Of a DNA stretch of 64,000 nucleotides, positions 4,763 through 53,609 are shown piece by piece; the first letter of the stretch is position 1, and every line of letters begins with the position of its first letter. This stretch comes from Laetmonice hystrix (taxonomy: Eukaryota), in contig OZ249436.1 of the NCBI GenBank assembly GCA_965235115.1, positions 26,786,001-26,850,000 of the forward strand, in the 5' to 3' direction. Below the pieces are notes generated by a model. The model had not been told where the DNA came from. It saw only the letters and a list, made by a program, of their open reading frames with translations, and searched no databases. The position numbers and the translations under genes are program-made.

Positions 4763-4768
4763 TTAAGT

Positions 4769-5038: not shown

Positions 5039-6021
5039 GGAGCCAGTCATTGTTCACGTTGGGAGGCGTGCAAAGACGAAACATACCGTAAAGTGCTAAA
5101 CCCACCCCCTTGCGACGGCCATGCGGTTTTTGATTTAATGGTGGAATTTCACTCTGAAATTTTTCATGGCTGGCCTTCTCCGTTCCAGGAAATGGGTTCC
5201 ATACTCTAATCTCAAAATTACAGTAAAATAAAAGGGTGATCTCAAAATCGCATGGGCGTCGCAAGAGGAATCGCCTTGGTGAGTTCAGCACTTAAAACTA
5301 CCGTGAATGACCAACATAAGGCAAAAAAAAACCGGTTTCTGGTCTGCGCCCGCATCCCTTTAGATGCCGCGCATCAGTGCTTTTTTTCTTGCCTTCCCCT
5401 TGGATGACTGTGAATTGTGCTGCCACATAGCGGTAAGGCCTAAAACTAACCATTGTTGTAATGGATATTTCATTCACCGACTGCAACGGAAGTGTGTTTG
5501 TATTCAAAGCGATGACAGCAAAGGTCATGGTCCTTATCTTTATGCAGGCAGAACTCGGACAAGTTATTGTTGTTAAGTGGGTGACACATTTATTAACTTG
5601 AATTTACATAAGTGATGTTATATAGTGGAATATTGGAGGTAAGTAGGACAGTGAGCCCACGCTGCACTGTCTGGGTTGAATTTAGGATGAGAAGGTATAG
5701 ATAAGGAGAGGAAGTAGGGCAGTGAGCCCCCGCTGCACTGCCCATAAGGTAGCTAAGTAAGTAAGGTTATAGGAGGAGATGTGTCACCGACCCGTTCTGA
5801 CTCTGAGCCCACGCTGCAGTGTCTCGGGTTTGAAAATTAGATCAAACGAAGTTGATATTGAAGTGGTAGGCTTTTCTTTGGCCGTGAGCCCACGCTGCAC
5901 AACCTTGGCGTCTTGGTTCAGCCTCATATAAAAGTTAAGAATGAAAAGTTACTGGGTTGTAAATTGTAACTGCAAAAGCCTGAAGGCTCTCTTATGTGGC
6001 GACCTTGGGCCACTAACCTGT

Positions 6022-6480
6022 CTATAAGACAGGTGGAGCCATAATATATCGTCGGAAGGCGTCCGAGTGCCCATTAGCTGAATCCCGGCATCGGAATAAC
6101 CTACCGTGCAGCATCGGAGGCTGCCCCAATCCGGAAACTACGATCCAGCGAAACTGACCTTTAAAACGTGTGGTGTCTAGACCACAGAAAACAAGTGTAA
6201 CGTAAGTATCGCCGGGATAGGTCTGCAGAAAATGTTGTTGAAGGACCGAGGGTGAAAAGCGCCCCGTCGTGATTTCCCCTCCAGTGGCTATATGCCCTTG
6301 ATGCCTGGACTGGGCAATAAGGAGAGGATGGCATGGCTGAGATGACGACATTGTATGGCTCTTTAGAATGTTTGTAATTGCGGAGGATGAAGGAAGCCTG
6401 GTCTTGCGAGAGTGTCATATCCCCATAGCTTAGCACATCTGGAGAAGTGGGGCCAAGTTATTTTGAACTCCCGGGATATG
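6022..6480 (-). pseudogene. Tyrosine recombinase C-terminal remnant of element A
   Basis: Frameshifted pieces: ILRNYKHSK (catalytic K region), YCPVQA, GLDTTRFKGQFR (degenerate GHSFRIG), HSDAFRRYI (catalytic Y). N-terminal part appears deleted. Confidence 0.8.
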
Positions 6481-6499
6481 GACGGCACGAATGGAAAAG

Positions 6500-7560
6500 T
6501 TATATTTGAGCATGGCAGACACCAAAATGGACCAGCTTCATGATGTTCTCTTTTGATGAGGAAGTAGAATTTATGATAGACACTAATGCTATATTGTCTG
6601 TGTGGAACTTGATGTTACTGTTCCTGAGCTTCTCGCCCCAAAGGAGGACAGCAAGGACAATCAGGTATAGCTCGAGAAGAGTTATGTCTCCACGGTCTAC
6701 GGAGGCTGGCCATGAGCGATACTTTGTCTTCTGGCAGCATGGCAAGGCCTCGTCTAACATCGAGGTCTATGCCCAAAAGGTAAGGGTCGGAGCAGGGCCC
6801 TCCGTTTTTTCTGCAACAATGGGTATAACACATTCATCGCGAAAAGCAATGAAGCGATCCAAGTGATCCTTTGCCTCCTGTTCTGAGTCTGCAATGATCA
6901 GGAAGTCATCCAAGACATGGACGATATGTGTAATATGAAGTTTGTGTTGGGCCACCCATTGGATGGCTGTCGAGAAGGCCTCAAAGATGGGGCACGACAT
7001 AAAACAGCCCATCGGGAGAGTGGTGTCATAATAGAATTGACCGTGCCAGATGAAGCCGAGCAGATGATGGTCAGCTGGAGTTATAGGGATGATCCTAAAG
7101 GCAGATTTAATGTCGGTTTTGGCCAGCCATGCATGATTGCCTAACTGGTTAATGTGGCCTATGGCATGGTCCAAAGTACAATACTTCACAGCAACTCTGT
7201 CCCTGGGGATGGAAGAGTTGATAGACGTGCCTCTTCGCATGGGTAGCTGAGGTTATGAATAAATCTGAAGCATCCTGGAGCCTTTTTTGGTATCACTTTA
7301 ATAGGTGAAACACGGAAATTCCTGAGAGGCGGAGATTGGAATAGACCCTTGATTCGGCCGGCCTGTATTTCCTGTAAGACCTTCTGTTCCAAGACGGGAA
7401 CCAAGGAATCGTAGCCCTGTAGATACTGACGAAGAACGTCTACTTTAACTGGGGAGCTGTTCGTTGGAGAACCAGGATCAGGCACTTGTGGGAACTGTTC
7501 TGTTTCGCTGTGAGGGGGTAGTGGTAGCGGAACGTTTACCTTCTGGCCGACGAAAAAGAT
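6500..7560 (-). pseudogene. Reverse transcriptase / RNase H of element A
   Basis: FRVSPIKVIPKKAPGCFRFIHNLSYP, LAKTDIKSAFRIIPI, LPMGCFMSCPIF, HVLDDFLII, EKTEGP; RNase H ITLLELYLIVLAVLLWG...FHTDNIALVSIIN. Several frameshifts and an internal deletion. Confidence 0.92.
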
Positions 7561-8262
7561 TGCGCTTCCCAAACTTGGAAGCCCAGTGGGGAGATCCGCA
7601 CACATAGCAGGCGTGGCTGAAGGAGCATCCCTCACAGTGTCTCCCGGAATGGAAGTCCCAACAGAAGTCAAATGGGTGAGTGGACTGCTGTTTAGCCCTC
7701 CTATCAGGAGTATGGGGCCTGCACGGGGAGATGGTAGCAAACGGGTTGCAGTGGCATATTAGATCGATGTTGATACTGCCGAACGATTCCCGTCCATTGG
7801 CATGGAGACGTCTAAAACAGTCATATACGTCTCCCAGTCGAACCCCTCCTCCTGTAAACCCTGGCAGAGCTGGAAAGACTACTGCAGCCTGGTAGCCCGG
7901 AACCTGCGGCATAGACTGAGGTGCGTCTGTGGATGGTGCAGCGACTGTGCGAGGACCGGCGTCTTGGCTGCGGAGGGCCTGTACCCCTGAGCGATGCCTT
8001 GAGTGAGCATTTGCCGCAGTTGGCCCAGGTCTGCCGTCGGTAAGGACCCAGTGGAACTACAAGGAGGCTGACCGAGAGTCGAAGGCTGCGTGAGTCGTTG
8101 ACTGGGCGGGTGGCACGGTCATCGGCGGTGTGGCAGGCTGGGGGGTTGGCGAAGGTAGGGGTTGTGCCGAATCTGTCCCATGAGACGAACTAGATTACGA
8201 CGCGTGCGCCCTGTACGTCCAGCTTCTCTCGCTCCACCACCACGTGACCGTTGAGGCGTCAT
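7478..8262 (-). pseudogene. gag-like ORF1 of element A with C-terminal Cys/His zinc knuckle
   Basis: Basic/Pro-rich N-terminus from ATG 8262; YDCFRRL..W-type motif region; CWDFHSGRHCEGCSFSHACYVCGSPH overlapping the start of pol, as in DIRS-order elements. Confidence 0.75.
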
Positions 8263-8501
8263 GTTATGACTGACTGACTGTTGGAAGAAAAACAAGATTG
8301 GCAAGTGGAAACATGGAAATGTAAGGGAGGCAAGTAGACATACTTAGGGATGTGGGCGAAGTAAAACAAGGAACAATAAGAGGATAACTACGGCGTAAGT
8401 ATGTAACCAGTCTAAGCATTGAAGAAAATATGAATACATGTAAATTGGATGATTAAGGAAGAGGCTCCAAAAGGATATGGTACCATGTATCATGGATAGC
8501 T

Positions 8502-9741
8502 ATCGTTGGTACAGCCGGGTCAGGTAGGCCAAAGTAGGGCATACTGACCCGGAAATGGCGTTGGTACAGGAATGTGTCGTTGGTACAAGTAACGTTGGTA
8601 TAAATATCGTTGGTACAAATTATCGTTGGTACAAAATATCGTTGGTACAAAATATCGTTGGTACAGCCGGGTCAGGTAGGCCAAAGTAGGGCGTACTGAC
8701 CCGGAAATGGCGTTGGTACAGGAAGGTGTCGTTGGTACAAATAACGTTGGTACAAATATCGTTGGTACAAAATATCGTTGGTACAAAGTATCGTTGGTAC
8801 AGCCGGGTCAGGTAGGCCAAAGTAGGGGGTACTGACCCAGAAATGGCGTCGGTACAGGAAGGTGTCGTTGGTACAAGTATCGTTGGTACGAAATATCGTT
8901 GGTACAGCCGGGTCAGGTAGGCCAAAGTAGGGCGTACTGACCCGGAAATGGCGTTGGTACAGGAAGGTATCGTTGATACAAGTAACGTTGGTACAAAATA
9001 TCGTTAGTACAAAATATCGTTGGTACAGCCGGGTCAGGTAGGCCAAAGTAGGGCGTACTGACCCAAAAGGATATCCAAAAGGATATGGCGTTGGTACAGG
9101 AAGGTGTCGTTGGTACAAGTATCGTTGGTACAAAATATCGTTGGTACAGCCGGGTCAGGTAGGCCAAAGTAGGGCGTACTGACCCGGAAATGGCGTTGGT
9201 ACAGGAAGGTATCGTTGGTACAAGTAACGTTGGTACAAAATATCGTTGGTACAAAATGTCGTTGGTACAGCCGGGTCAGGTAGGCCAAAGTAGGGCGTAC
9301 TGACCCGGAAATGGCGTTGGTACAGGAAGGTATCGTTGGTACAGTATCGTTGGTACAAATATCGTTGGTACAAAATATCGTTGGTACATCCGGGTCAGGT
9401 AGGCCAAAGTAGGGCGTACTGACCCGGAAATGGCGTTGGTACAGGAAGGTATCGTTGGTACAAGTAACGTTGGTACAAATATCGTTGGTACAAAATATCG
9501 TTGGTACAAAATATCGTTGGTACAGCCGGGTCAGGTAGGCCAAAGTAGGGCGTACTGACCCGGAAATGGCGTTGCTACAGGAAGGTGTCGTTGGTACAAG
9601 TATCGTTGGTACAAAATATCGTTGGTACAGCCGGGTCAGGTAGGCCAAAGTAGGGCGTACTGACCCGGAAATGGCCTTGGCACAGGAAGGTGTCGTTGTA
9701 CCTACAAGTAACGTTGGTACAAAATATCGTTGGTACAGCCG
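8502..9741. repeat. Composite tandem array inserted in element A
   Basis: Ten copies of CCGGGTCAGGTAGGCCAAAGTAGGGCGTACTGACCCGG separated by variable numbers of 15-16-bp AAATATCGTTGGTACA subrepeats. Confidence 0.95.
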
Positions 9742-10078
9742 TGATGTAATGGTAAACAATGAAACCAGAGAGTGGAAACACGTATCAAATGTAATACAGA
9801 CAATTACATAAACCTATGAAAATATGATGAACAAAAGGGAATGTGGAAGAGGCGCATAAAGCCCTCTCACGCTGAGATAGCAGAAAGTATAATTATTGAG
9901 GAAATAGGGAACACCCGAAGCGAATCTAGAGCCCCGTGACGTCACAATGTCGGGATAGAATATACGGTAGGGATATCTAGCTATGACCATCTAACCCAAC
10001 GCTAAAGTGGACCGGTGTACCTAGTTTATTTGGTGAGGAAGGCCAACCCCTGGACTGAGTACAGGCCCTCTAAGCGAC

Positions 10079-10545
10079 CTATAACTTGTAGTTACCCCAG
10101 TCATTAAAGTGTACACCATCAGGAGAGTGAACCGTAGGATTGTGACAATACAGGGCCAATAACTTCCAGAAAACGATGTCGGATTCTGTAGAAAGTATTT
10201 CCCTAAGGTAATGATTACAAGACTGAACCCTGTCTGGGTGGGAACAGTGCAAAATACACCCTCCCGACACCGAGGTGATCGATGCAATGGCGGGCGGAGT
10301 CATGCAGAGTACTGGCAGTGAGTAGGCCTAGGGGGAAGCTCCCGCAGTCCCGGGGAGAAGAGGTCGTTGCCGCCGATACACACAAGATCATACTGAATGA
10401 TATCCCCAACGAGTCGGCCCCCCACACCGTGAAGAGAGACCGACACATCATCAGCCCAGACTGGATTGACCCTTGAATGGTACTGATCGGGAACGTTCAG
10501 CATAAAATGAGACAGGCGACGAATGTGGCTGTCGCCGAGACCCAC
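10079..10545 (-). pseudogene. SGNH/GDSL hydrolase ORF of element A
   Basis: All four SGNH blocks across frameshifted frames: LGDSHIRRL, HGVGG, IGGNDL, SPDGVHFN. Confidence 0.85.
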
Positions 10546-10787
10546 ATGGCGGACATCGGGGAAGCCGGGCGAGTAGGCCTAAACAACCCAAACATATGTA
10601 ACAAAAACACCTAGCTTAGTCAGGCCGATCGCCTCCGAAGCGTCCAGTATCCAAAACCGCGTAAGTCGCAGATGTCTTTGGTAGCCCTGAGTACAGCCGA
10701 TGGCCCCCGAATATTTCAGATTAATGGAGATTGTTGACAGAGCTCTGGGTATATTTTTGGGATAATCTGGGATGGGAGAGTGACCTG

Positions 10788-10913
10788 GGCCCGGTTCACA
10801 AACAAAGTCAAGTCAATTTTAATTGACTTGAAGTCAATTTTACTTGAATCTGATTGGTTAAAATGGATTTCAAGCTAATTAAAATTGACTTGGCTTTGTT
10901 TGTGAATTGGGCC
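10788..10913. mobile_element. 126-bp MITE, PIF/Harbinger-related (CWG target)
   Basis: ~37-bp imperfect TIRs GGCCCGGTTCACAAACAAAGTCAAGTCAATTTTAATT; CTG duplicated on both sides. Confidence 0.85.
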
Positions 10914-11507
10914 CTGATTAAGAGAACGGAATTCTGGGGGAATTAGGATAATGAACCTGTCGCCCTCTAGCGGGATGCAGGAAAACCAAGGATGATGAGT
11001 CTCTAATGAGACTCTAGGGAGTAGGGGAGTTCTCCTGCATAAAATCCGTTGAACCAAGGTTCCAACGTGCCTATAGTGTACATGGCCCTTAAGCCTCTCA
11101 AACCGCGTATTGATATTTGATTATTAATATTGCTATAAAAATGCAGGCCCGTAGGGAGTTTTGAGGGTGTGCCGACCCCCCCCCCCCCCCCCGCAGGGGA
11201 GTAGACATCTGAAAAGATCGCTCACCACGTAGCCTCAGTCCCGTATCCAAGGGGGTGGCGGGGGTGAAATATGGCTTGTCTCTGCTTCTTGGTACTTGGG
11301 ATATTCGTATTCTAATGCATGTAGCAATACTCAGGTCGCATTACCATCGACTAAGTTTGGATTTGCGAACATAGAATAACTGATGGTGCAGGAGAGGGGG
11401 CCGACAGGAAAGATTGAGTTATTTGTGTGAAATCCCGTTTTTTAGCACGCTCATGAAAATACTTCATAAAAGAAGAAACTCATTATCCACTATGGAAAAC
11501 TTTCATT

Positions 11508-11513
11508 TTTATT
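11508..11513 (-). terminator. Putative polyadenylation signal of caveolin copy 1
   Basis: AATAAA ~290 nt past the stop; retained in the array copies and in diverged copy 9 (59946-59951). Confidence 0.6.
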
Positions 11514-11798
11514 TCGTAACACTTATTAATGCTACTTGTAGGATGCATCGTGGTTCAGAACACATAAACATAAATTGGTTATCTCATTATAGTGAGATTC
11601 TCATATCCGGATCAACTATGGCACCAAATCGATGCACGTGTCCCCAACGTGCCCAATCCTGCATGGCTCTTCCCTATTATCACGTTTTTTACTCTTTGTA
11701 AGTCGTTACCGATCATGGCAGTGTAAATAGTACCCCCATTGATTGTCTACTTTCGAGCTTAGCCTACTTTTGAGCCTACATTGATATATGTTAAATTG

Positions 11799-12603
11799 TT
11801 ATTTCTTAAATGCAGAGAAACATTTGCCAAACGACTCGGCCAAAGGATCGCAACAGTTCTGAATAATGATGGCGTAGATCTTTCCGATCAACTTGACGTT
11901 GATTTCGTATGCCCGGATGCAGGGTGTGATGATCCAGATGTGTTGGAAGGCCACGCAGGCGAAGTAACATCCCCAGCCAATCATGATACAGCATGAACAG
12001 AAGGTCGTGGCCAGGGTGTAGCAGAGGGCCTTCCACACGTTGAAACATTTAAAGGAACACTTCCAGCAGCAGTCCATACTCTTGGTGTGGTCCGGCTCGC
12101 CAATCAAGTCTTCCCAGGCGACCTATAGAACCGAAATGACAAGTAAAGGGGATGAGTTCTCAAGTTGGTAATAATGAAGACTTTCTTTTTTTGGCTAATA
12201 ATTTTAACTGTCAATAGATACACCAAGAAGGTGACGTATAACGTCACCGGTATATGGCACAAGTTATGATATTTGCGATTTAAACTTATGTCTTGAAATC
12301 AAGAAGAACATGCAGTATGGTACGATGACATGTAGCAAGGTCAGGTAAATATTTTTGGGGTTACAAACCTAAATTCTACATTGCTGTTAATGCCAGCGAG
12401 TCTATACTATGTTCTATTGTCTGGGCTCGTTTAAGTTCGTTTGACTTTTTCTATACTTTCTGCCGACCTTGTTAACTACACTGACTCATTGAATCATCAG
12501 TAAGGGGCTATAAACATGAACTCACCTGTAAGTGATCATTAATGTTGTTTGGGTCCCTGTTCTCAAAGTCGGGTTCCATGGCCCAAGCCTCGCCGATTCC
12601 CAT
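11799..12603 (-). CDS. cav: Caveolin, copy 1 (133 aa; exons 12526-12603, 11799-12122)
   Basis: Spliced protein MGIGEAWAMEPDFENRDPNNINDHLQ|VAWEDLIGEPDHTKSMDCCWKCSF...HIWIITPC...CDPLAESFGKCFS is collinear with caveolin (RDP motif, FEDVIAEP-like signature). GTGAG/TAG phase-0 intron just before the signature motif, as in vertebrate CAV1. Confidence 0.95.
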
Positions 12604-12701
12604 GGTTAAAGTTGTAAAGTGTTCCTCGTTAGAAGTACGAAGTAGCTATTGTTCCTCGGTAAGACCGAATCTCGATGTGGTCCTTCCTTTACGGATGCGG
12701 G

Positions 12702-12709
12702 TTTTTATA
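12702..12709 (-). promoter_or_regulatory. TATA box of caveolin copy 1
   Basis: TATAAAAA ~100 bp upstream of the ATG; present at the same place in all nine copies. Confidence 0.7.
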
Positions 12710-14966
12710 TGTTCACGTCGCCATGCAACTGGTATACTGTCGAGTATACATACGTCGCTAAGTAAGGACTAAGACTTAGTTTCTTAACCTCTTTAATGGT
12801 TGTGAACAACTCAGGCACAATCCGATGTTCGCCCATGTGTGAAATACATTGGATTAACGGTTTCTTCGCCACTTGGTCAACCCAGGCAAATTCGAGTTGG
12901 GCAAATACGCATTTTTATTCTTGGCCTTAAAGGCAGGGTCGCGTCTTAACTATGGGGCAAAGGGCAGCCGGGGCACAGAGCTGGGAGAGGCATCCGACTT
13001 TCAGAGAAGAAAAACAAGTCAAACTATGACACTCCAAAAGCAGGCTCATATCTTTGGCAGAAAGGCCCCGTGTCTTCCTGCCTTGTCTTGGACATAAATG
13101 TAGGGCCTATAGGCTAGGCTAGTAGGTCATTTGGGCCACTAGCCCCAACATATGAGAACTGCATTGTGCATCAAAGATTATCTTTTCACATTCACGCACT
13201 ACATGGGCTGAGTCATCTTTTGCGGCAATCGGAACTTCCGAGGCCATTTCCGGTTTCCGGTTGAGAAATAACCTCGGATGTAAGTCAGGCCCAAAGCTAC
13301 AGATGTAAAACGTCGATGTGAGGAGGCTCATCCACATCACCGCTCATGTTCTACCGTTCTATGCGTAGTTCTAAAGGATATAGAGAAACAGATCACGAAA
13401 CTTATGAATCTGACACCAATTTAGTGCATTTTGGTGTAGCCAGTGTTTTGGAGTGGGATTTTAACACAAATTTCAGTCTTAAAAAGTTGAAATCCGCGAA
13501 TCCTCGAAAGATGTTCGTCGTTGCCCTCAGCGTCCATACTTGATCTAGCCTGCCTGAGCTGCAGGCTCGGACTAAGCATACATAGTTATTGCGAAGTTTA
13601 TGCACTATGTTAGTTCAAACGTGACATTTATTATTAGCCTACCAAGTTCCAATAATTTCAAGCAACAAAAACAGTCACGGAGTTGTGGCGCTGTCCAGAA
13701 ACAAAACAGGTGCTGGGGTTATGCCTCCGTCATTTTAACTAAATCGGTCACTTGACTCCATCAAATCATGTGACTGGAAGTAGTTCAACATGGCAGCGCC
13801 CGTAATACATTCGAGATGTTTTGCGTACGGAAAGCCCGAGATGTTGCGATTGCTTTTGCAGATATAGGCTGCATATGCTGGACTTGCAGGTCTATTATTA
13901 CACTCTAAAATTAGATCCTTTGGCCCATTATTGGGTCACAATCAGGCAAAAGCAAGCATAAACCGCTTGGCTGCCGCCAGGGTATTTACCTCCAAGTCGG
14001 ACACAGGGGATGTCCTTCAAATATAATGTGTGCTAATCAGGCCAGCAATAAGGCGTTTCGCTCTGGCCCAGCGTAGGACTCTGTACTCCGAGCTTGGGCC
14101 TCAGTCATTTGGTATAATTCGGCGCCTAAGCAGGTGTCATCTGAATGTTGCCACGTCCTGGGGAATGACATGACACTTCCAGATGCACTGAGCAGGGCCA
14201 CAATATCTGATGACTGTCGGGCAGTTAGTTGCTAATGACCTTACAAGGACCATGAACCTGAACCCTGTTGTTGTCAATGATGCTCTGTTACTCTGAGCAC
14301 ATTCGTTTACCGCATCCCTGGCACGGTCAACCACGTCTTGGCAGAAGCAGGCCCATACGCCAAACACGGCAGCGAGGCAGAGGAGTGTAGTTCGCCTGAA
14401 ATGCAGGTCCGAAGGACCTGCTATCCCTGAAGTAGTCCGACAGGCCTGCATTCCTAAGACTTCAAGTCCGTGTTGTTGTATTATTTAAATATTCCTTCAA
14501 AATCCTATTCTTAATCCTAACCTTAACCCTAATCCATTTGTATTTCCTTAATTGTATTGTCTTATACCACGAGGTTGATGGTCTAGGACCTGCAAAGCCA
14601 TGGAATCCAGGTCCGGTGGACTTCCATTCCGGCGGAGTTACATTCATTCCCTTCACACTTGTGTGCACAAATGTGCTGCCGCCACGCTACTTCAAAGTTG
14701 GAGTAATCGGTGTCACAAAAAGTTCAGTTGAGGGATAGCTCCCAACAGTCCAGTTATTCACTTCTAAGGCTATGCTAATTATATAGATATGGTTGAAAAT
14801 TCACGCGATGTCGAACGTAGTATAACATGTAATATTCTATAACATTTTTAATTGAATACTGCCTTTGGATATCACTTGTTTATTTACTCAGAATAAAATG
14901 AAAAATAGAAGGTCTCTAATCCATTTACCTATAGGTATAGGCTGTGTAATGGTGTGGGCGTCCAAT

Positions 14967-15312
14967 GGGGTACATTAGATCCATGTGCAATAGGGATTTC
15001 AAGTCAAATCCGCAAGGCGGCAGCACTGTGCAAGCGGTCCTTGCTGCAGTACGTTAGCATAAGTTTAGAAAGGACGACGAAATGCTAATGTGCTGTAGGA
15101 TGACCTAACCTTATCATTACTAAATAATGTTAACTGATTTGGACTAAAGTCAATGAAAGAAGTTTAAAAATTGTCATTAGAACAAATGTCGGTATGGCAA
15201 CCAGCCACAGATTAGCAGATATCAGCCTATCTAATTCTATGCTAAAATGTCGCCTCCTGAACCGCTTGCACAGTGCTGCCGCCATGCGGAAAATGCGGCG
15301 ACCAAGTTCCCC
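14967..15312. mobile_element. 346-bp MITE with AT target duplication (ISL2EU-like), repeated in spacers 1-6
   Basis: GGGG...CCCC ends, subterminal IR GGCGGCAGCACTGTGCAAGCGGT; empty site GTCTA-AT-TGTCCC at 40084-40085 in spacer 7. Confidence 0.75.
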
Positions 15313-39548: not shown

Positions 39549-39745
39549 AGCCGCTTTCACATGCACACGGTTTGCGGTGTGCGCTTTGCGGCGTGCGTTT
39601 TTGCAAAAATGCAACAACTGAAAATATATATAACCGTTCACATACCCCCGGTTTGCGGTGTGCGGCGATTTACATTGGCTACATTATTAACAAAAACGCA
39701 CGCCGCATGCTGCACGCCGCAAACCCTGTGCATGTGAAAGCGGCT
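39549..39745. mobile_element. MITE, PIF/Harbinger-like, unique to spacer 7
   Basis: TIRs AGCCGCTTTCACATGCACA(C/G)GGTTTGCGG; TTA on the right, left target copy degenerate; absent from the other spacers. Confidence 0.85.
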
Positions 39746-42839: not shown

Positions 42840-44444
42840 CGTCGATGTGAGGAGGCTCATCCACATCACCGCTCATGTACTTCGACAATATGATTAAATC
42901 TAAAATGTAAGATTTGTTATGAAACAGGGCCCTGTAGTCACTGCTGGGGTACCGGCCTTTGAGCGGCACTTATCCCTGAGAAACACGTCTATCTGCGACT
43001 TGAGGCTCGCCATCTGCTGTTACCATTTCCTTTGTCCTGCTCAACTGCTTCTCTCCACTCAAGACTGTCCATTTTCCAATCCGTTCCTTAGTGTTTCTTT
43101 CCCTGAGAATATTTATGAGGAGACACTGCAATGAAAATAATGTACATTTCTAATAGTAAAAAATTCACTTGAACACTTGAACATTTGAACCAAAAATATT
43201 CTACTAAAAAATGGCGACTTTTTTTTATTATATCCTCAACATAAAATAATGTTGTTTGGTGTTTGGTTCCTTTATTTACTCTTTATTAATAAGCAATGTC
43301 CTCCCGGGCCCCCCGACACGTTTTTCCTGCCGACCGAAGTCCCCTTGCTCATCCTCACCTCACCTTGTCTTAGCTCAGCTCACCCTTGCTCAGGGTGGAA
43401 AAGTAACTAAAAAAACAGGGCCCTGGGATGTCTTGACACATGGGTGATCTCTAAATTGAAAGTGACTTGATGCTGAGCTGAAGTGACCTGGTTGGTGTAA
43501 TGCTTCAGCTCCTTTCATTTATCTGGTTTGAGTAACATGCCTTGACGACAACGATTACGATATCATGCACTTAGACAGGCTTCATCAAATGTGTCCCTTG
43601 ACAGTCAGGGAGTTTGTTGAATACACCTGTACAAATGTTCACGACAGAGCAAAGGAATGTTAGCGGAATTTCGAAGACGAAATAGCATTTCAGTCCAACA
43701 AAGAGCGGGAAATTTTCCCCTTTAACCCGGAAATTAACTTTGAGCAGAGCATGGCGGGAAAAGTTATTCATCGGAGTACCTGCCCGCGCACTTTGAATCG
43801 GTCACTGTGCGGTTGGACATCGGAGAGAGACGACGTTAGGTTTGGACATTGTAGAGTGACGAAGGTGGTTGTAGGTCGAGGAACACCGGGAGATCGGCGT
43901 GGAGAGGAGGAAATGTAGCTAAGTTCTTCAATTAGCGTTCATGCTGCCCTGCCCCGTCCATGTTCACCGGTGCCATGCTTCGTGTGTCGCCGCACTTGGG
44001 GTTCAGTGCCTTGTGATACACATGGGGCAATCGTAGTTTGTATGTGGGGTCGGATATGGCGTGTGTATATGTCAGTCCTAAATGTTTGGGGTTTTGGGTA
44101 ATAATTTAGTGATTCATAGAGATGGCATTCCTGCTTGATATGATCAGTACTGGTGCGGGAAGGCGGGGGGGGGGAAGTTTTGGGTAATAGTTCACTGATT
44201 CATAGAGATAGCATTCCTGCTTGATAATGATCAGTACTGGTGCGGGAAGGGGTGGAGTTATTGGTGCTGTGGTCGCCAAGATGGTTTTGGTACTGCCACA
44301 CTATGAGTTTGGTACCCCGTGATACACATTGAACAATTGCAAAGTGTAACTTGTAACTTGCATTCCTTGAGATGTCCCATTCCCGCCAGTTTTAACAGAG
44401 CGTTTTAGGTGTGTTGTATCCATCTCTTCAGAAAGGAGCGAGTG

Positions 44445-44860
44445 ATGGCCGGTGAGTTATTCAGGATGCGGGCCCTCCTGGTGGGAGATTCCTATGTGAG
44501 ACGACTGGCGGGCTACATAGTAGATGGAGGGCGGTCACAGAATTTTGGCCGGCGCGATGTGGACGTCACCTTTGAGGGCATCAGTGGAGGCACCGTCGCT
44601 ACTTTGGAGCAGGACCTGTGGACGTGGTTGGATAACTATCAGCCGCATATACTGATAATCATGATGGGGGCGAATGATTTGTGTGATCCTGAGCTGCGGG
44701 CTGTCGATGTGGTGGACCGTTTACTAGTGCTGGCCCGGAGAGCAAGGGACGAGTACGGGGTCTGCCGCGTAGTCTGTTGCTCAGCTTTTGACAGGGGGAG
44801 GTATCCTCGGTCGGTGACGGAATACCCCCAGAAGATTTTTGGGTGCAACGTTCGGTTGAA
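44445..44860 (+). pseudogene. SGNH/GDSL hydrolase ORF of element B (C-terminus lost)
   Basis: LLVGDSYVRRL, FEGISGGT, PHILIIMMGANDL. Block V (DxxH) not found; the ORF runs on into inserted DNA. Confidence 0.88.
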
Positions 44861-44972
44861 GGGGGCCTGGGTTCGGAGTAGAGGGGGTAGCTTGCCATGT
44901 TCAAATGATGCTGTGTGTGTATTAGGAAATAGAAAACTTGTATGCTTTAAATCGTTGTTGTGTTATGTGTAT

Positions 44973-46008
44973 GGCCATTTACACATAAGCGATTTTCCAA
45001 GCGATGGGGCATCGCGCCAACATCGCTTGGCTCAAACGATGTCGGTGCGACATCGGTTTAGTGTAAATGACTTCGGTTGGCCATCGTTTGGCCAAGCGAT
45101 GGGCAACCGACGATATCAAAAATTTTTGATATTATCGCTTCAGTTCAGGCGATGCTGAGCATCGCTTGGGGAATTTTCGTTCTATTCTTACAACGAGATG
45201 GCAAAAGTTTCAACAGATCGTGCTAGGACTCCATGCAAGAAAGTATCACTAGGGTCCAGGCTTTCAGAATCACCCAAATGACCCACCCTGAAGTCAAATT
45301 TGATGTTTTCTCTATACTTTCATAATATGTTAGGTTTGGCATGAAGATTTAATTAGTTGTAGGGCTTTTAAGTTCTAAAATAATAGGTAAAGGTGAAGAA
45401 ACGTCAAGAATTAGATGGGTGACGTCATGATTTACAGCACTCAGGTGGTGCCCTCTGTTACAGAGTGATATATTCTATTGCTGAATGAAGCACTGACCAG
45501 TATAGGGCCTACATCTGCTCATGAAAAAAAATAGAAAACAATGAAAATGTGATTATATACATATGGCATTGCTCCGAGTGCGGGATGGGCCTATCACAGC
45601 ACGCGTCAGGCCAGTTCAGGCCGAGCCCTTTAGGTGAGGCCTAAAACTGGGGTAGATGCTATTCTTTAACCACTACAGGCAGCGTAATCACTACAGGCAG
45701 TGCCTATCAAAACATAAGCCACGCCAAGTCTCCGCCCAATTCGATTCTAGTGATTAGGCCCCTATATACCCATGCCTGTAGTGATTAGGAAACCTATATA
45801 TCACTATTTACAGCCCTCGGGTGAAAAAGATTTTAATATGAAGAAATCGTCGCTCGAGCATCGCATCAAAACCATCGCCTCAGTGTAAATGCTTATCGGT
45901 CGGCTGACCATCGGTCCTGTGGCCTATGCGATGGCCAAACGATGGTCAGCATCGCATGTGATTATCGCATGAGAGCATCGTCTGAGCATCGCTTATGTGT
46001 AAACGGCC
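44973..46008. mobile_element. Non-autonomous DNA transposon, Harbinger-like TIRs
   Basis: GGCCATTTACACATAAGCGAT ... ATCGCTTATGTGTAAACGGCC with CATCG-rich subterminal repeats; TSD not clear. Confidence 0.75.
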
Positions 46009-46011
46009 CGA

Positions 46012-46470
46012 GCTGGCGCTACACTAGGCGATTCCATTGCGATCCCGTTGAGATCCCGTTGAGATTTCACGTTCCCACGGTCGCATCGCATAGTGTAGCA
46101 GGCTCCGTCGCCCATCGCAAGGGCGGGGCAAACTCGTTGCGACCGTGGGAACGTGAAATCGCAAAGAATGAACATGTTCATTCTTTGCGACGACAATTGC
46201 AGCTGAATCGCACCGTTTTTCTGCTTGCTACAAGTGTAGCCATCGCCGTCGCTCGTCGCAATGACGTGTCTACTGGATCAACCAACCAGACTGCGGCTAG
46301 CGCATCGAAATTCGCCTTTCGCGCCATTTTGGTTGAAATGAGGCGGCAAATCGGGTGTGCGGTCCCCTGTTCGATCGCCAAGTGTAGCAGCCTTATCGAT
46401 GCGACCAGCATCCCCCCGGTTGCGATGTGTCGTCGCAAGCAAATCGCTTGTTGCGTCGCCTATAAGGCCC
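46012..46470. mobile_element. Adjacent/nested Harbinger-like MITE remnants
   Basis: GCTACACTAGGCGA ... TCGCCAAGTGTAGCAGC followed by TTA, then another TIR-like end ...CGCCTATAAGGCCC-TTA. Confidence 0.55.
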
Positions 46471-47157
46471 TTATGTCACATTTCCTGGTGGTTTCGCTCG
46501 ATTTCCTGGGGTTAGGCAACCTGCCACGGACAGGGCGTGCACGTCTTATTGTGCTGTGTGAATTATCATTTGGTTCTAATATTTTTGAAATATTCCCCAT
46601 GGTGACGCAACTTAAACCTCATATTAAAAGGGTTACTGAGTTACAATAACGGTAGACAAAACGAAATTAAGATGAAGTGGCGTTTCATGTCAGATAAATG
46701 ACTACAACAATACAATTCCGTACACGAACAACGATTAACAATCTTTATCACCCCAGCATGGTCCAAGGTGAAAAGTCTACATTGACAGGATACGATACAA
46801 TAGCTCATTTTTGCCTATTATGTACACTACAGTGATTTCGTACTGTTTTGTAACAGGCGGAGGCCCTCTACCTTAGCCTCCTTAGCTTCTCTCACGGAAG
46901 GATAAGGTCAATACTGGGTGAGGATGACCCCACAATGACAGAATTTCAGTGAAATGATCAACCTGCCTATATTTAAGACAGCCTCGGAGGTGTCTTAAAT
47001 ATAGGAGTCATTTTAAGTGGTTTGCACAACATAAGTAGCATATTAATTTCGACTTTTTCGGAGTGCCTAATTTGAGTGGGTACTTATTCGGTCTGCTTTG
47101 TCTTAAGTAGCTTTATGAATACGGACCCAGGGCATAGCGCAAGCGGAGGAGGAAGGG

Positions 47158-48187
47158 GTGTCGCAGGCTATGGCGGCCTTCATGCGGTTGCATGGGCAAG
47201 CGAGACAGGGTAATGCAGTTGGTGAATTGGAGGTGGAGGATCAACAGCCGGTCAGGCCCAGGCCAGAGGTTCAGATCCCGGTGTGGCAAGAAGATGATCC
47301 AGGGCTTCTGGGTTTTCTCCCCAATCCGATCCCGTTGGGTCTTCCTGCCTCAGCAGGGGCTCCTCCGGAACAAGGGGCAGGACCTCCAATTGTGTCGAGG
47401 GTTGCAAGCCGGTCGGGGCCGTCGTCTTCGGGGGATGCTTCCACAGTTCCAGGATTGATGAGTGAGCTTAACACGGCTTCTACGTCTCTCATTTCGGGTG
47501 TCCCAATGAGCCTGAGGACAAAGATTTGGGAAGGTCAGTATGTAGATCTGGCCTTGTTGATGGCGAAGCCAGAGGCAGCTTTGACCGTGGATGTGAGGCC
47601 AAGAGAGGGAGTCCCCCAATTGATAGTGAATAGGCCTGTGCCGGCGAAAGTACGTACTTTGGCGAAGTGGGACAGTGCGTTCGCGCGCTTCCATGCGATT
47701 ATGATAAGGGTACACCCAAAATTGTCGGAGGCATTAATAGGACATGGCCAGTATGTCAAGAAGGTTGCATCGACGGGGGGAATTGGCTGTTATATGATGA
47801 GAAATACCGTAGGGGTGTGGCCGATGGTACCATTAGATGGGGCAGATGAATGTGGAGTTGTCCCTGGTTGCGACCCTGTTTTCAATGTAGCTCGGAGGGC
47901 AGCTTCGCCAGGATGGGGGACAAAGCAGGGGTCGCCAGCCAATGACGCCAGGGTGCTCCGTCAAGATACCGCAAGGGTATTGCTTTGCGTACCATCGCTG
48001 GGGAACGTGTTATGTGCCTAAATGCAAGTGGAATCATCGTTGCCCAATTTGTGATTCTCTGCATCCTACATTTCGATGTTCAGGGGCCCGTCCGGATCGG
48101 CCCAGCAAACGCCCACGGATTGCCGATAACTCGGGGGACAGATCAAAAGGTGGGGGGCAGTCGGGTTCCTCTCGGGCTGACAGGTGA
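47158..48187 (+). pseudogene. gag-like ORF1 of element B
   Basis: LRTKIWEGQYVDLALLM, WDSAFARFHAI, then frameshifted GGNWLLYDEKYRR and zinc knuckle CFAYHRWGTCYVPKCKWNHRCPICDSLH. Confidence 0.88.
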
Positions 48188-49807
48188 GCCCCTTGCAGGC
48201 TCATGCAGGTCCAGATGAGGGGCGCCGGGTCCGCCTGCCTTCCCCGGTTCATGCTGAGAGATTGGGGGAGCTACTAAAAGAGGCAGGGTATTCGCCTGAG
48301 GACACTAATTACCTGGAGGAAGGGTTTACTGCCGGGTTTCGGTTGAGATACTCGGGCGCGAGATGTTATAAACCCAAGGATGGATTCTTCTGAAGCAGAG
48401 ATCATGGGAAAGAAGATCGAAAAAGAAAAGTCGCTGGAGCGTATTATGGGACCTTTTCAAGTGCCCCCTCTTCTAGAGTTTCGTGTTTCGCCTGTGCGGG
48501 TTGAGCCAAAAAAGGTGCCGGGTGAATACCGCTTTATACACAATCTTTCTCATCCTCATGGGGACCCCTCCTCCATCAATTATAACATACCGTTCCATGA
48601 GAAGACGGTTAGGCACTGGACATTGGATGATGCTGTGAAAATAATAAGGGGATTTGGGGGACAAGCATATGGCAAAAACTGACATAAAATCAGCATTTAA
48701 AATATTATATCAATGATTCCCAGGGATTATCATCTGTTAGGATTCAAGTGGGATTCAAAGTATTATCATGCAACCACACTCCCTGGGGGCTGCGTCATCC
48801 TGTGCCATATTTGAGAAGTTCAGTATATCCCTGCAGCACTTGGCGATTAATCGTCTAGGAGTTTCGGCCTGCGTCCATGTGCAAGACGATTTTCTATTTA
48901 TAACACCAACTGGGGAACGGTGTGCCCGCGATCTACGGTCGTTTTTTTTGCCATGTGTGACTATTTGGGGGTCCCAATTGCCCACGAGAAAACCGAAGGA
49001 CCCAGCCAAGTCATGGAGTTTCTTGGTATAACGGTGGACATACCAAGGGGGCTTTCTCGTCTACCCCAGGACAAGGTGGAAAAGTGCAGGGCTCTTATAG
49101 ACATTTTCTTGGTCAGTAGGAAAGTGACTCTCCAGCAGCTTCGGCAACTTTTTAAACTTAAGGCAATAGTCCCGGGGCACCCATTTTTGGCGGCAATGTA
49201 TGCATTAACTACAAAATTATCTCGACCGTATTTCAAGGCGAAATTGACGGCTCCAGTAAAAGAAGACTTGAGAAAATGGTCGGGGTTTCTGGACCACTTT
49301 AATGGGTGCTCAATTTTTCTGACTGAGGCCCACAGCACGGACCCTGGGGTGGAATTGTACACGGATGCTGCTACTACGGTGGGGTTTGATGTGTGTTGTA
49401 GTAAGGAGTGGACTTGTGGGAAATGGGTACAACATTGGGTAGGAAAGGACATTCTTGTGTTGGAGACGTATCCTGTGGTTTTGGCGTTGGCAAATAAGTC
49501 CATAATATTTCACATAGATAATCAGGCTTTAGTTCAGATAATTAACAATCGGCATTCTTCCTCTTCGGAAGTTATACCACTCCTACGTGTATTGTTTCTC
49601 CTAGGTTTGAAATATAATATTGAAGTCAGGGCCCGTCATGTCCCAGGAGTTTTCTATGTCTCGGCTGATTCATTATCACGTTTTGAATTTCAGGCCTTCC
49701 GTCAATCATTGCCGGGTGCGGCCTTCCTGCCCCGCCAGATTCCTTCTTGGGTCAGCCCGGAGTCGTTCAACCCCTGGATTCAGCCATTAGCTACTTACCT
49801 GTGGTAA
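48184..49807 (+). pseudogene. Reverse transcriptase / RNase H of element B
   Basis: LEEGFTAGFRL, FRVSPVRVEPKKVPGEYRFIHNLSHP, KTDIKSAF, LGAASSCAIF, HVQDDFL, EKTEGP; RNase H LYTDAA...LETYP...HIDNQAL...ADSLSR. Multiple frameshifts. Confidence 0.93.
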
Positions 49808-51333
49808 AAGACGCGTTGAGGTCTTCTTTGGCTCCTTCTACTTGGGTACTGTATGAGAGAGTTTGGAAATCGTTCACGGAGTTTGTGGTTGGTATCAAAG
49901 GGAAAGCCCCTAGTTTGCCGGGATGTCATGTATTTTGTGGCTATAGTTTGTCCGGTAGGGGGTCGGCGCCTTCTACGGTTGTTACGCAGGCTTCTGCAAT
50001 TTCGTACCTTCACAAAATCAATAACCTCCCAGACCGTGTATCCTCCCCGGTTGTTCAAAAAATGTTTCAAGGGTTGAGGAAGCAGTTGTCGGTACCGGAT
50101 GTCAGGCTTCCAATAACGGCGTCCCTTTTGTCTCGTGTGTGTGTGACTGCTGTGTCGGTTTTTCCTTCAGAGTACCGCTGTAGGATGGTTCGCTCGTTGA
50201 TCACGATGGCCTTTCATGGGGTTTTCAGAATGGGGGAGCTTGTGGGAAAAGGGTCTTCAAGGGTGGTCCAGTTGGGAGGTCTGGTTTATACAGATTCGGG
50301 GGTGACGATTACCTAATACCCCCATCACACTAGAAGGCGATCTAGCTGCGCTCTAGAAAATGGGACAGATCGCCGTAGAGCGTGGATAGAGTGCCTTGAG
50401 GTCCTTCTGAGCGTCATAGGAGCGAGATAGTGTCTCCCTGGGTCGTCATATGGTCACCATGAACGCCATTAGCGGCGACCAATTTTGAACATGCACAAAA
50501 TTTACGCTGCAGGGTCGCCGTGGATCTAAAAGCGCAGTTAGATCGAAATGCGATCACCATCAGCGTCCTAGGAGCGCAGTACCAGATTCCTGAGAGCGCA
50601 GGTCGAGCGCCAGTGAACGGTGTAGCATCGGCCTTCCCATCTCATGGCGCTGGCCCGACGCTCTTACCACGATGCTACGGAGACCTCGGTGACCCTAATG
50701 AGCCCTTTACACGCTGCGCACGGTGCTGCCGCTGCGCTCATGACGTCAGAGCTGCGTTCTTGCTGCGCAGTGAGCGCAGTGTGATCGTATAGGACGTGGT
50801 AGTAACGCCATACGACGTGGTAGGGACGGCCTAAATTGTCCGAGAATTGCATTTTTCCACGTCGTGGCAGCAGGGTGGGAGCGGCATTGCAGTCACACTT
50901 GGAGGGGTTTTCTGATGTTGACGGCGACCAACGGCGATCTGCGAGGTCGCCGTGGTCGCCGTAAGGTCTTTATCCAGTGTGATGGGGGTATTACCGGCGT
51001 CCAAGGCTTCATATATCCCACAGAGGGTTCAACTGTCTTGGGGTCAAGATCGCTCCGCTTGCCCAGTAAGGTTGCTTAGGGAATTTAGGTCTAGTCCCAG
51101 GTCCACTTTTTGTGAATCAGGCAGGGGTTCTGTACAATTATGCCCAGGTGTTGTCCTTGCTCAAACCTCTTTTCTTGTCCTGCGGCATGGACCCATCGCA
51201 TTACAAAGGGCACAGTTTCAGGATTGGGGCAACGTCAGAAGCAGCAAGAGCGGGGTACTCGGATGCACAGATCAGGTTGATGGGCATATGGCGATCCAGC
51301 GTGTTCCGGAAATATATCCGTCTTCCGTTTTAG
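49747..51333 (+). pseudogene. Tyrosine recombinase of element B, split by a MITE
   Basis: SLAPSTW..Y, SAISYLHK, RLPIT, AFHGVFRMGEL (R), T-L-PASK (K, across the insertion), CPVR, GHSFRIGATSEA (HxxR), MGIWRSSVFRKYIR (W, Y). Confidence 0.93.
50317..50990. mobile_element. 674-bp Harbinger-like non-autonomous transposon in the YR ORF
   Basis: TIRs TACCCCCATCACACT(A/G)GA with TAA/TTA flanks. Removing it restores the reading frame GVTIT-L-PASK. Confidence 0.9.
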
Positions 51334-51506
51334 GGGGGGGGGGTTGTTGGGCCCAGGTTGAGGTCACCCGGCCCAACGATTGGACGAATAACGCCTTACG
51401 TAACCGTAGCAACGGGCGTAACGGGCGTAACGGGCGTAACGGGGAAGGATTATCCTGCAAAGCTACATGACAATATGTTACCACCGGGAGGGACCTAGTG
51501 TAATTA

Positions 51507-51717
51507 TATCGGGTGGATAAAAAAACGCCCCGAACTTTAAATAGATTTTCGTTTTTAGCGCCAGGGGATTAATATCAAAGCTATTGAGCTGAAACTTTAA
51601 CATACCAGAGATAATATCATGAAGTGATACTAAGAGAAATTTTATTGAATTATAGTGCATAGTTTTTGAAATATTAAAGTTTAAAGTTCGGGGCGTTTTT
51701 TTTTTATCCACCCGATA
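51507..51717. mobile_element. Tc1/mariner-like MITE
   Basis: TIRs TATCGGGTGGATAAAAAAACGCCCCGAACTTTAAA with TA flanks. Confidence 0.88.
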
Positions 51718-53609
51718 TATTAAACCTTTCCCGGACAATACACATCACAGACAGTGGATAGATAGGAATATGTTACTTGGGGAGAGTAATAGATGGACAG
51801 ATTGAGATACAGGATGGCTTGTCCTTACCCGAGGCTTCGGGAGGACGATACACGGGATCTACGGATCTCTATCTACATGGAAATGTCCTTATATGTATTA
51901 CGGAAAATTATAATAGAAATAAGTAACTTGGAGAGACTAATTGGCGGACAATAATGTACAGGGGCTTGTCCTTGCCCGAGGCATCAGGAGGACGCCACAT
52001 GAGGTTTTTTCAGACCTCTAGTTACAAAGCCTCGAAATAAAATGTGGTAGAAATAATAAAATTTCTAAAAAACGGGTATGAACGCGTTTGTTGGACTGAA
52101 AATGTAATTTCTTTCTTCCAGCGTTGAGGTCTGTGTTCAGTCAAGGCAGAGAAGCAGTCCGTAAATAAAGGTTACGCAGCCAAACAAAATACGATTTATG
52201 TTAGGTAAATAATAGCCAAGGCGCAATATGTGTGATGCAGTAGTTTAGAAGTTATTCAACTTTAAAAGTGTCAATTTTTTACACCTAGCACTTGATCGCG
52301 CTGTCAAATTCATATTAACATAAATCAACATTGGTCATTGTTTTAATAATTAGGAAAATCTAACTGGTAGGCTAGCGTGATATGCAAATTTGGCATTGAA
52401 GCGTTTCTGTATCTCAGTGGCTTCATCGCAACGCATAGTGTGGCAAGGATAGAAATGATACAAAACTTGCAAGTGTAACACAACAGTTTTACTGTTGTGA
52501 TGATTTTGCTCCAATAAGAAGAACGTTATATAACCAACTTAAGTTATGACACAAAGAACATTAATATGTGGAGGTTAATTCCTAGTCACCAACGTTAAGA
52601 GCCATGAACACGAAGGGAGTGAGGCCAGCCTCCCTAGTGTTATATATACACCCTTATACACCCAGCTTTAAACTGGAATAAGCACCTCAAACAGCGTATT
52701 AATATATTTGATTATTAATATTGTTATAATAATGTCAATTGCAATAAAAGATTTTTTATACGTCGGAATATTGTCAAATTGTGGTTGATGACACTTTTGG
52801 CTGACGACCGCTTTAATTTGTATCTGAAAAATTAAACGAACTGTACGCTTTACTTCACTGATTATTTATGTTCATCTAATGTTGCGTTCGGAATAAATAA
52901 AAATAATGAGACACTGAGTAGCCTACAGTTCCAGGCTACCATAGGCAAATATACTTACATAATGATTGGCAGAGCAGGACGGGTACCTTGCGCCTTCTGA
53001 AATAATCATGCATCCATTAACCAAATGTTACCCATTTTTTGAAATAATACAAACAAATCTCTACATTCTACTGCGCAGAGGAACAAACTGAAAACGATAG
53101 CCTAACATCAAAACTCAGAGTGAGATCATCTATTAAAAATGTAGTTTCTCAAATGAAATTCACCTCCTCTCGTACTCGTGTCCTCTACGTCACCGTTATC
53201 CTGTAAAAACGCACATAATTTGTATCAAAGTGTACACTGGGTGTTGAAATAGGTAACACTCTTTTCTATATCAAAAACTTTAATAGATAATATTATATAT
53301 TATACAGTAGCTGCTTACATATAGACCTAACGTTTTTCTATATGCGCCTAAACATTTAAAGGCATCCCGCATAGTATATTTCCATCAAAATTAATAACCT
53401 GCCTCTAGTTTTCTCATCTAGACGTTGTGGAAAATATTGGAAATTCTTATTATTGTCATAATTTTTATCATTTTCGCCAACCGTAGCAATAACATCAACC
53501 ATACCAACACAAGGCGATATTGGCGATGCTACTGACCTCATATAGCATATTAGAAAAGCGTAGTCAAAATTTTTAGGGGAATATACGATAACTTGTTCCT
53601 TCCTAATAC

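Follow-up and report, generated by a model that had tools for sequence, protein, structure and literature searches.

Two decayed tyrosine recombinase retrotransposons of Laetmonice hystrix and a widespread lineage of relatives with a 5′ SGNH hydrolase, short inverted repeats and a predicted folded junction

Retrotransposons of the order DIRS combine a gag-like ORF, reverse transcriptase/RNase H (RT/RH) and a tyrosine recombinase (YR), without a DDE integrase. In the sections of PMC3266345 and PMC7192593 drawn on here, DIRS1-like members encode a methyltransferase (after RNase H), need an internal complementary region (ICR), share a short NTT core with their target and have inverted terminal repeats (ITRs), which among the table rows listed are conserved over about 100–200 bp; some members carry a terminal extension on one side, complementary to the ICR. 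The cDNA of DIRS-1 is single-stranded and able to integrate, yet the DIRS model assumes a duplex circle (PMC7192593, in the same sections). PAT-like elements have both a methyltransferase and split direct repeats. Ngaro-like elements, as described for DIRS-53_XT and DIRS-54_XT of Xenopus in part of PMC9210276, show the order gag, RT/RH, YR, no methyltransferase, an extra SGNH hydrolase ORF after the YR, and split direct repeats of 236 and 152 bp. Priming, the restoration of ends and the form of DNA that the recombinase accepts are open questions for DIRS-order elements.

We analysed a window of 64,000 nucleotides of Laetmonice hystrix (assembly GCA_965235115.1, contig OZ249436.1, positions 26,786,001 to 26,850,000), in which a first-pass annotation had described two divergent elements, A and B (Table 1). 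Both are decayed YR retrotransposons with the order SGNH-gag-RT/RH-YR and no methyltransferase. This order, claimed from the outset, was recovered domain by domain in each, together with the combination of gag-like ORF, RT/RH and YR without DDE integrase. The two elements were also said not to align as DNA, and indeed no blastn match was obtained at E<0.01; they are alignable as protein (tblastx). No methyltransferase was found, Pfam searches with two pol proteins giving RT families only, and in intact relatives pol stops after RNase H and is directly adjoined by the YR. Among the matches listed for B there was no RNA holder.

Table 1. Features of elements A and B, in positions of the window.
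Feature	Position	Strand	Remarks
Element A, decayed YR retrotransposon	5539..11072	-	Corrected limits; left end approximate, by analogy to relatives
A: SGNH hydrolase, frameshifted	10082..10566	-	GDS and DxxH motifs kept
A: 121/136-nt minisatellite between SGNH and gag	8497..9745		Native expansion or insertion
A: gag-like ORF, broken	7490..8262	-	C-terminal Cys/His zinc finger at 7681-7586
A: RT/RNase H (pol), frameshifted	6451..7489	-	Internal deletion; pol recovered at 7395-6451
A: tyrosine recombinase	6025..6379	-	C-terminal remnant
A: four hairpin repeats of 3′ UTR	5641..5902	-	
A: 5′ terminal hairpin (arm 2 of predicted site)	11047..11067	-	Outside earlier limit; weak alone, z -1.4 and -0.7
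A: left inverted repeat	11027..11043	-	Starts TTT
A: right inverted repeat	5539..5556	-	Ends AAA
Element B, decayed YR retrotransposon	43656..52101	+	Corrected limits; AATGT at either end
B: 5′ terminal hairpin	43668..43683	+	Outside earlier limit; z -3.2 and -2.2
B: left inverted repeat	43688..43702	+	
B: SGNH hydrolase	44445..44857	+	PF13472 E 5.6e-9; C-terminal third not found
B: foreign high-copy repeats separating SGNH from gag	44858..47127		Read depth; joint 44857 to 47128
B: gag-like ORF, broken	47119..48142	+	Zinc finger; gag recovered at 47419-48142
B: RT/RNase H (pol), frameshifted	48241..49807	+	Pol recovered at 48241-49771
B: tyrosine recombinase split by nested insertion	49800..51333	+	Parts 49819-50244 and 50986-51327
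B: nested TA-flanked inverted-repeat element	50314..50990		Within YR
B: nested very high-copy MITE-like element	51503..51718		3′ UTR
B: right inverted repeat	52087..52101	+	Ends AAA

Related loci with the same domain order numbered 80. The SGNH hydrolase lay upstream of pol in 42 of them, and only one of the other 38 was long enough for this test. It was found downstream of the YR only behind a head-to-tail junction (4 of the 41 loci that extend 700 nt or more beyond the YR, plus L067). Eleven related families, all from other animals, have ends like those of A and B, giving 13 families in all. The YR of one family had 1320 relatives; the residues R, K/H, HxxR, W and Y are kept in at least 90% of 81 relatives, and the best fold match among the Foldseek rows listed was Cre, with no integron integrase among those rows. 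A quick tree, made without curated references, grouped A and B with related loci and a lizard protein and left two fish proteins outside. Viral contigs yielded no relative; some 820 stretches with a junction-like pattern in them were treated as chance in AT-rich DNA. Genome contigs yielded five related loci, of which four were in one bacterial MAG and are probably host DNA. An Rfam scan of eight related loci gave no match up to E 0.5, and therefore no known ribozyme is found there.

Compared with DIRS1-like elements, the A/B lineage has in common inverted terminal repeats, a one-sided terminal extension, a short core shared with the target and, if the mechanism discussed below holds, a single-stranded cDNA. 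In contrast, it has no methyltransferase, its ITRs are only 10–18 bp long, its ends share a core A instead of NTT, no ICR is found and its extension is self-complementary. The PAT-like pairing of methyltransferase and split direct repeats is absent. With Ngaro-like elements it shares the order gag, RT/RH, YR, the lack of a methyltransferase and the extra SGNH ORF, but this ORF precedes gag, as in a circular permutation of the Ngaro order, and where Ngaro has split repeats, a 5′ hairpin and short, imperfect ITRs are present in the full copies tested; this separation from Ngaro follows published descriptions of the group. In a literature search, with curated Repbase families and Goodwin & Poulter 2004 outside the comparison, no paper describing such a lineage was found. 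These observations support a widespread YR lineage with a 5′ SGNH hydrolase and short ITRs, without ICR or visible split repeats. The initial proposal of a distinct and perhaps undescribed lineage thus gained 80 loci, while its 5′ boundaries proved wrong and one relative (L037, see below) contains a join of the split-repeat kind.

The limits of the elements were set by copies with differing flanks in related families. The first-pass annotation took the TTT repeat as the 5′ limit and named copies running past the ITRs as evidence against its reading. Among related copies this does occur at the 5′ end, homology beginning 28–38 nt upstream of TTT, and the true layout is A-spacer-hairpin-spacer-TTT-ITR...ITR′-AAA. 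Because the 5′ extension is a conserved hairpin, the case for a distinct integration route is strengthened. The left end of B is placed at 43656/7 by an empty-site joint, which connects 43656 with 52103 and occurs in three of four runs of one sample; the short side of this joint is only 22 nt long, and it contains 4–7 extra T-rich letters that the folded-site model does not predict. The reported absence of a target site duplication is true only loosely, since every case shows a duplicated A, frequently AA(A), and AATGT occurs at both ends of B (43656–60 and 52101–05). The motif AATAAA(A)TGTG, described as marking the end of both elements, was rejected as a common terminal feature: the hexamer ends 50 nt before the end in A, 60 nt in B and 125–143 nt in seven of eight relatives.

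The short TTT...AAA repeats themselves are real in both elements (B, perfect 15 bp; A, 17/18 with one indel). That they are chance matches in decayed elements is hardly credible, and for B it is contradicted. The 15-mer of B alone is within chance expectation over 9.8 kb (E 0.28) and the match in A needs the indel, but in 11 further families repeats in this arrangement likewise pair within their own family, and the ends of B agree with a depth step as well as with the empty-site joint. The repeat of B is significant because of its position and of family-specific pairing across the 13 families: beyond the T/A run, a mean of 9.6 of 12 positions pair within family versus 4.9 across families (0 of 20000 permutations). 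The hairpin preceding the ITR had a mean z, from mononucleotide shuffles, of -3.9 versus +0.3 in flank controls, with z below -2 in 9/13 and 0/13, respectively.

The absence of ICR and split direct repeats in A and B was borne out. Comparison of the terminal 150 nt with the interior of ten full elements revealed no ICR matching the termini themselves, and A1-B1-A2-B2 split repeats were absent from all ten. Flanks of 53–3151 nt contained element sequence in none of 17 on the right and in one of 17 on the left, and that exception is a junction. One locus, L037, does contain an A-to-B join of the split-repeat kind: part of module A (+132..+217), 110 unique nt, the last 240 nt of module B, a junction and a full element. 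In L009 a junction is followed by 213 nt of module A, so that module A stops at +217 and +213 in the two loci, both directly before the splice donor. These two breaks, the L037 join, the lack of a methyltransferase and the SGNH ORF, known from amphibian Ngaro (PMC9210276, in part), would fit an ordinary Ngaro logic, in which active masters have split direct repeats (A1-ORFs-B1-A2-B2 or a permutation), junctions are B/A joins and lone copies are either secondary products or the result of assembly collapse. Even then the folded site described below may be real, as an overlooked feature of Ngaro junctions and not a new replication route. We consider this explanation, the chief rival of the model favoured below, rather unlikely, in view of the empty flanks and of the lack of A2-B2 modules around A and B in the contiguous 64-kb window. 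Moreover, second copies after junctions break at several places (about +213, +613, +1240 and +3640), the two unique spacers are unlike each other, and a screen of 85 loci with the ends of 12 families turned up only one A-to-B join.

Natural head-to-tail junctions, 60–70 nt long, exist as DNA in six families, all in short-read assemblies, where tandem copies, circles and collapsed split repeats look alike. None was from A or B among the joints listed (15 of 53). In all six, folding gives two stems with an asymmetric loop between them (z -2.6 to -5.3 for the plus strand, 0–3 of 200 shuffles), the plus strand folding better than the minus in five. Wobble in the ITR pairing points the same way, G.T against A.C being 8:3, a small bias. 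A covariance model of the six captured the ITR stem only and is uninformative; no part of the window matched it below E 6. The spacer between the 3′ arm of the hairpin and the left ITR measures 6 nt, and arm symmetry peaks at this spacing (43/70 matches versus 14–27 at other spacings, 14 left ends), whereas the crossover-side spacer has no fixed length (best 16/30). The crossover maps to TAA/A: a position after arm TAA fits 13/13 left ends, a third A is present in 11/11 right ends, and one A at the crossover is always common to element and target. As YRs cut at the arm/spacer border, leaving a 5′-OH (PMC4246890, in part), the plus strand is indicated as the cut strand. The arm motif presumably resembles the inner arms of bacterial dif.

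A double-stranded circle, excised by the YR or made by RT, might instead be the substrate, the YR binding either the junction as duplex or a cruciform extruded from it, and this DNA also serving as template for terminally redundant RNA in pararetrovirus-like fashion. The classical DIRS model is indeed a duplex circle (PMC7192593, in the sections cited), L047 was assembled as a circle (55-nt overlap), and the poly(A) hexamer lies 125–143 nt before the end within a covarying stem, the 3′ strand of which is found downstream of the hexamer. However, tandem copies also yield circular contigs; in duplex form the ITR arms are 28–34 nt apart, and the ends do not map to the sole duplex site whose spacer has the proper 6 nt; the crossover-side spacer varies. 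We regard the duplex circle as improbable.

Integron attC is a folded single-stranded site similar to attP(+) of the CTX phage. In attP(+), recombined by XerC/D, a single hybrid site forms when two core-like sites in inverted orientation, of which one has an over-long central region, fold together; cutting takes place at the arm/spacer border and homology is required only beside it (PMC4246890 and PMC5357621, in part). Junctions of the A/B lineage have this arrangement of two inverted core-like sites with a crossover at the arm border and homology only next to the cut, but the likeness is one of predicted layout only. CTX, according to the same parts of these papers, is bacterial and uses rolling-circle DNA, a host-encoded recombinase and the fixed chromosomal target dif, whereas the A/B lineage consists of eukaryotic retroelements that encode the Cre-like YR themselves, have loosely defined A-rich targets and show a short loop separating the sites.

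We therefore favour, at about even odds, a model in which the substrate integrated by the Cre-like recombinase is folded plus-strand DNA, itself copied from RNA that spans a junction, and in which each of the two ends supplies half of a recombination site. In the folded junction, the duplexes formed by the ITRs and by the hairpin would serve as the two binding arms of this recombinase; it would cut the plus strand behind the right arm and exchange one strand with a target starting with A, and replication or repair would complete the insertion, as for CTX phage. Promoter-like and poly(A)-like signals, from which transcription start and poly(A) site were placed, lie inside the ends, so that a copy standing alone is probably unable to supply the template for its termini; strict TATA-like matches near +120–135 occur in only 3/14 5′ UTRs. 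If lone copies are sterile, the copied RNA must span a head-to-tail junction, which might be provided by copies in tandem, by a circle or by a short A-B module. That RT synthesises the minus strand first speaks against a plus-strand substrate, and the weakness of the hairpin of A alone speaks against a folded site.

The hairpin could also provide the primer itself: the minus-strand cDNA would fold back at its 3′ end and prime the plus strand, the YR would open and join the resulting hairpin-ended linear duplex, and RNA would arise by read-through of lone copies. The hairpin does sit at the exact 3′ end of the minus-strand cDNA and folds on that strand too, and the RT primer of DIRS is given as unknown in the sections of PMC7192593 cited. 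Nevertheless, this is very unlikely: an unpaired loop would part the 3′ tail from the stem, the RNA would have to include the first nucleotides of the element, and the fixed 6-nt spacer and plus-strand crossover are left unexplained.

In its widest form, the folded plus-strand model would mean that, besides ICR and split repeats, a third type of end organisation exists, namely in a large, overlooked animal lineage in which lone copies are sterile, RNA arises solely by transcription across a head-to-tail junction or a circle, and folded single-stranded DNA is integrated in the manner of CTX and integrons; we put this forward tentatively, as something that may well prove wrong. Because the A/B lineage offers intact recombinases and a 60–70-nt junction in which the crossover is mapped and one spacer is fixed, the question of the substrate is testable with oligonucleotides. 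As far as our searches reach, integration of folded single-stranded DNA has been demonstrated only in bacteria. Annotation tools that seek ITRs with an ICR or split repeats would overlook or mis-trim elements of the A/B type, so that the corrected ends matter for the annotation of these abundant elements. If the prediction is true, hairpin-type ends would represent an undescribed insertion route for YR retrotransposons, and, with a eukaryotic recombinase that inserts folded single-stranded DNA at loosely defined A-rich sites, the CTX/integron mode would no longer be confined to bacteria.

The two decayed tyrosine recombinase (YR) retrotransposons of the window, A and B, could not be aligned with each other as DNA, as the first-pass annotation had remarked, and at the protein level they did align, across SGNH, RT, RNase H and YR. 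The order proposed for both, SGNH-gag-RT/RH-YR, was borne out. A has undergone frameshifts, a deletion in RNase H and reduction of its YR to the C-terminal part, and contains a 1.25-kb minisatellite; B is frameshifted, its SGNH is cut, and it has received three foreign inserts. The short terminal inverted repeats (ITRs) were likewise recovered, with 17 of 18 matching positions in A and 15 of 15 in B, the latter within chance when taken alone (E 0.28). Elsewhere in the window, a caveolin-like array with core units about 99.9% alike either expanded recently or is an artefact of assembly.

Coordinates of the features (window positions unless a related locus is named)
Feature	Sequence	Position	Strand
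Element A	window	5539 to about 11072 (left end by analogy with relatives)	minus
Element B	window	43656-52101	plus
128-nt inverted repeat with 56-nt arms, 5′ UTR of A	window	10787-10914	
Repeated short hairpins with GCGT in the loop, 3′ of the YR of A	window	5641-5902	
Tandem array of ~4.13-kb units (8 copies), caveolin-like exon in each	window	11361-42317	
Further caveolin-like unit outside the array	window	60183-60503	
Fuseless-family gene exon (PF15993)	window	54806-55735	
GC-rich minisatellites	window	1956-2252, 3486-5044, 63702-64000	
Conserved 3′ RNA structure, examples	L014	5500-5772	
	L027	6942-7236	
Intact DDE_Tnp_1_7 transposase adjoining an element	L003	8118-9887	
Repeat parts followed by a junction	L037	1-440	
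Junction followed by a second repeat part	L009	5316-5528	
Families with natural head-to-tail junctions (one seen in three loci)	L029, L067, L011, L018, L006, L037		

An alignment of seven RT/RH homologues, used as query against metagenome contigs, matched 359 stretches, of which the best 80 were kept; these form 35 families, and the named proteins near them come from stony corals. SGNH lies 5′ of pol in 42 of these 80 loci, and just one of the remaining 38 has at least 2.6 kb of upstream sequence. It was found 3′ of YR solely where a head-to-tail junction precedes it. Intact members encode an SGNH of about 200 aa, a gag with a zinc finger, a pol without methyltransferase, and a YR whose catalytic residues are each conserved in 90% or more of the 81 relatives and whose predicted structure (pLDDT 87.6) best matches Cre (E 2e-10, TM about 0.49). 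A quick tree lacking curated references resolved A and B as deep branches of a 44-row group (SH-aLRT 95) that leaves two fish proteins outside. The group that A, B and the related loci define also takes in a lizard protein, P0008, which could connect this lineage to vertebrate Ngaro. Four loci, L081-L084, place relatives of animal retrotransposons within one bacterial MAG, where this sequence is likely host DNA; in L084, SGNH stands ahead of gag as elsewhere in the lineage. Short hairpins with a GCGT loop, like those of A, also occur at the 3′ ends of L081 and L082, which belong to another host.

Element ends were mapped by same-family copies sitting in different flanks. On the right, homology stops at the terminal AAA, as proposed; on the left, it starts 28-38 nt before the TTT that had been taken as the limit. 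From its outer end, this left extension has an A and then a few nt leading to a hairpin, which a short spacer separates from the ITR. Its mean folding z is -3.9, versus +0.3 in flank controls, and z is below -2 in 9 of 13 families versus none of 13 controls. A and B each have a hairpin directly outside the earlier limits (11043 and 43688), significant in B (z -3.2) and weak in A (z -1.4). Within a family, the ITRs pair at 9.6 of 12 positions on average; between families the figure is 4.9, a difference reached in 0 of 20000 permutations over 13 families. The same mismatches recur in different copies of one family, so neither arm is templated by the other. Element sequence was present in none of 17 right flanks and in one of 17 left flanks (16 without). 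With the 5′ limits thus corrected, we hold it highly probable that the anatomy is genuine and lineage-wide.

Both ends could be determined in 11 related families, and six of these show a DNA joint between the right and the left end. For B, contigs of one sample gave a summed depth of about 300-590 over the insert-free parts of the element versus 80-160 in most flank bins, and a joint of 43656 to 52103 appeared in three of four runs of that sample, its short side being 22 nt with 4-7 letters unexplained. Ngaro-type split direct repeats might underlie the junctions, lone copies being derived, or collapsed in assembly, as short-read assembly can do. L037 has part of a split-repeat unit A, 110 unique nt and part of a unit B before its junction, and L009 a second unit A of 213 nt after its own, both unit-A parts ending directly before the splice donor. 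Second copies stop, however, at four different points, and elements A and B are lone copies in a contiguous window; we consider this explanation rather unlikely.

The six junctions are predicted to fold into an ITR stem, an asymmetric internal loop and a hairpin stem (z -2.6 to -5.3 on the plus strand, -0.6 to -4.6 on the minus strand). Symmetry between the 3′ arm of the hairpin and the left ITR is greatest, with 43 of 70 matches, when the spacer measures 6 nt; other spacings give 14-27. The crossover site, TAA/A, lies on the opposite side, where spacer length is not fixed and the ITR arms are 28-34 nt apart. A cut after the AA of the arm fits all 13 left ends, 11 of which have one further A, and a third A is present at each of the 11 right ends (among these, two pairs share a flank). 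Tyrosine recombinases cleave between binding site and central region, and CTX phage has two inverted sites, with centres of 12 bp and 5-7 bp, neither usable as duplex, which fold into a single site in the plus strand (PMC4246890, in the parts consulted). The junction layout corresponds to this folded site and, by analogy, the cut position would indicate the plus strand.

According to the portions consulted of PMC9210276, PMC6681497, PMC4157794, PMC3783388, PMC3266345 and PMC13465315, DIRS-like elements have ITRs, an ICR (internal complementary region) and a methyltransferase; split direct repeats characterise Ngaro, PAT and VIPER; and the SGNH of amphibian Ngaro lies 3′ of YR. In DIRS-1 the ICR is essential, and the cDNA, which is single-stranded, is for the most part linear (PMC7192593, in part). 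Ten full elements contained neither ICR nor split direct repeats, in line with the first impression. The elements examined thus differ from DIRS1 and, in split repeats and SGNH position, from Ngaro, although their working most resembles that of Ngaro. The layout is not described in the consulted parts of PMC2632668, PMC12440569, PMC5357621 and bioRxiv 10.64898/2026.02.25.703748. In the literature covered, no element is described that combines an SGNH in the 5′ position with either short ITRs or a hairpin at its terminus; such families may already be deposited in Repbase or Dfam or described in Goodwin & Poulter 2004.

The last 300 nt of related elements share a conserved RNA structure of three helices, with two-sided changes in 9 of 22 pairs, whose long stem encloses the poly(A) hexamer. 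Eight related loci gave no Rfam match up to E 0.5, and a profile of the structure's first part had no match in A or B. In seven of eight relatives the hexamer, within this covarying stem, stands 125-143 nt from the end; the distance is 50 nt in A and 41/60 nt in B. In the 5′ UTRs of relatives, a conserved splice-donor-like motif is weakly indicated at about +205 to +275 from the element start, 5′ of the SGNH start, and suggests, from its sequence, spliced gag/pol mRNAs that skip SGNH; a loose promoter-like stretch, as weakly indicated, precedes it. If these promoter and poly(A) signals are used, RNA of a lone copy would lack both att arms, and the RNA that serves for copying would have to extend across a junction. 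The best mechanism, which we believe about as much as we doubt it, is that RNA for copying would be drawn across head-to-tail junctions and that the element's own recombinase would integrate the folded plus-strand junction.
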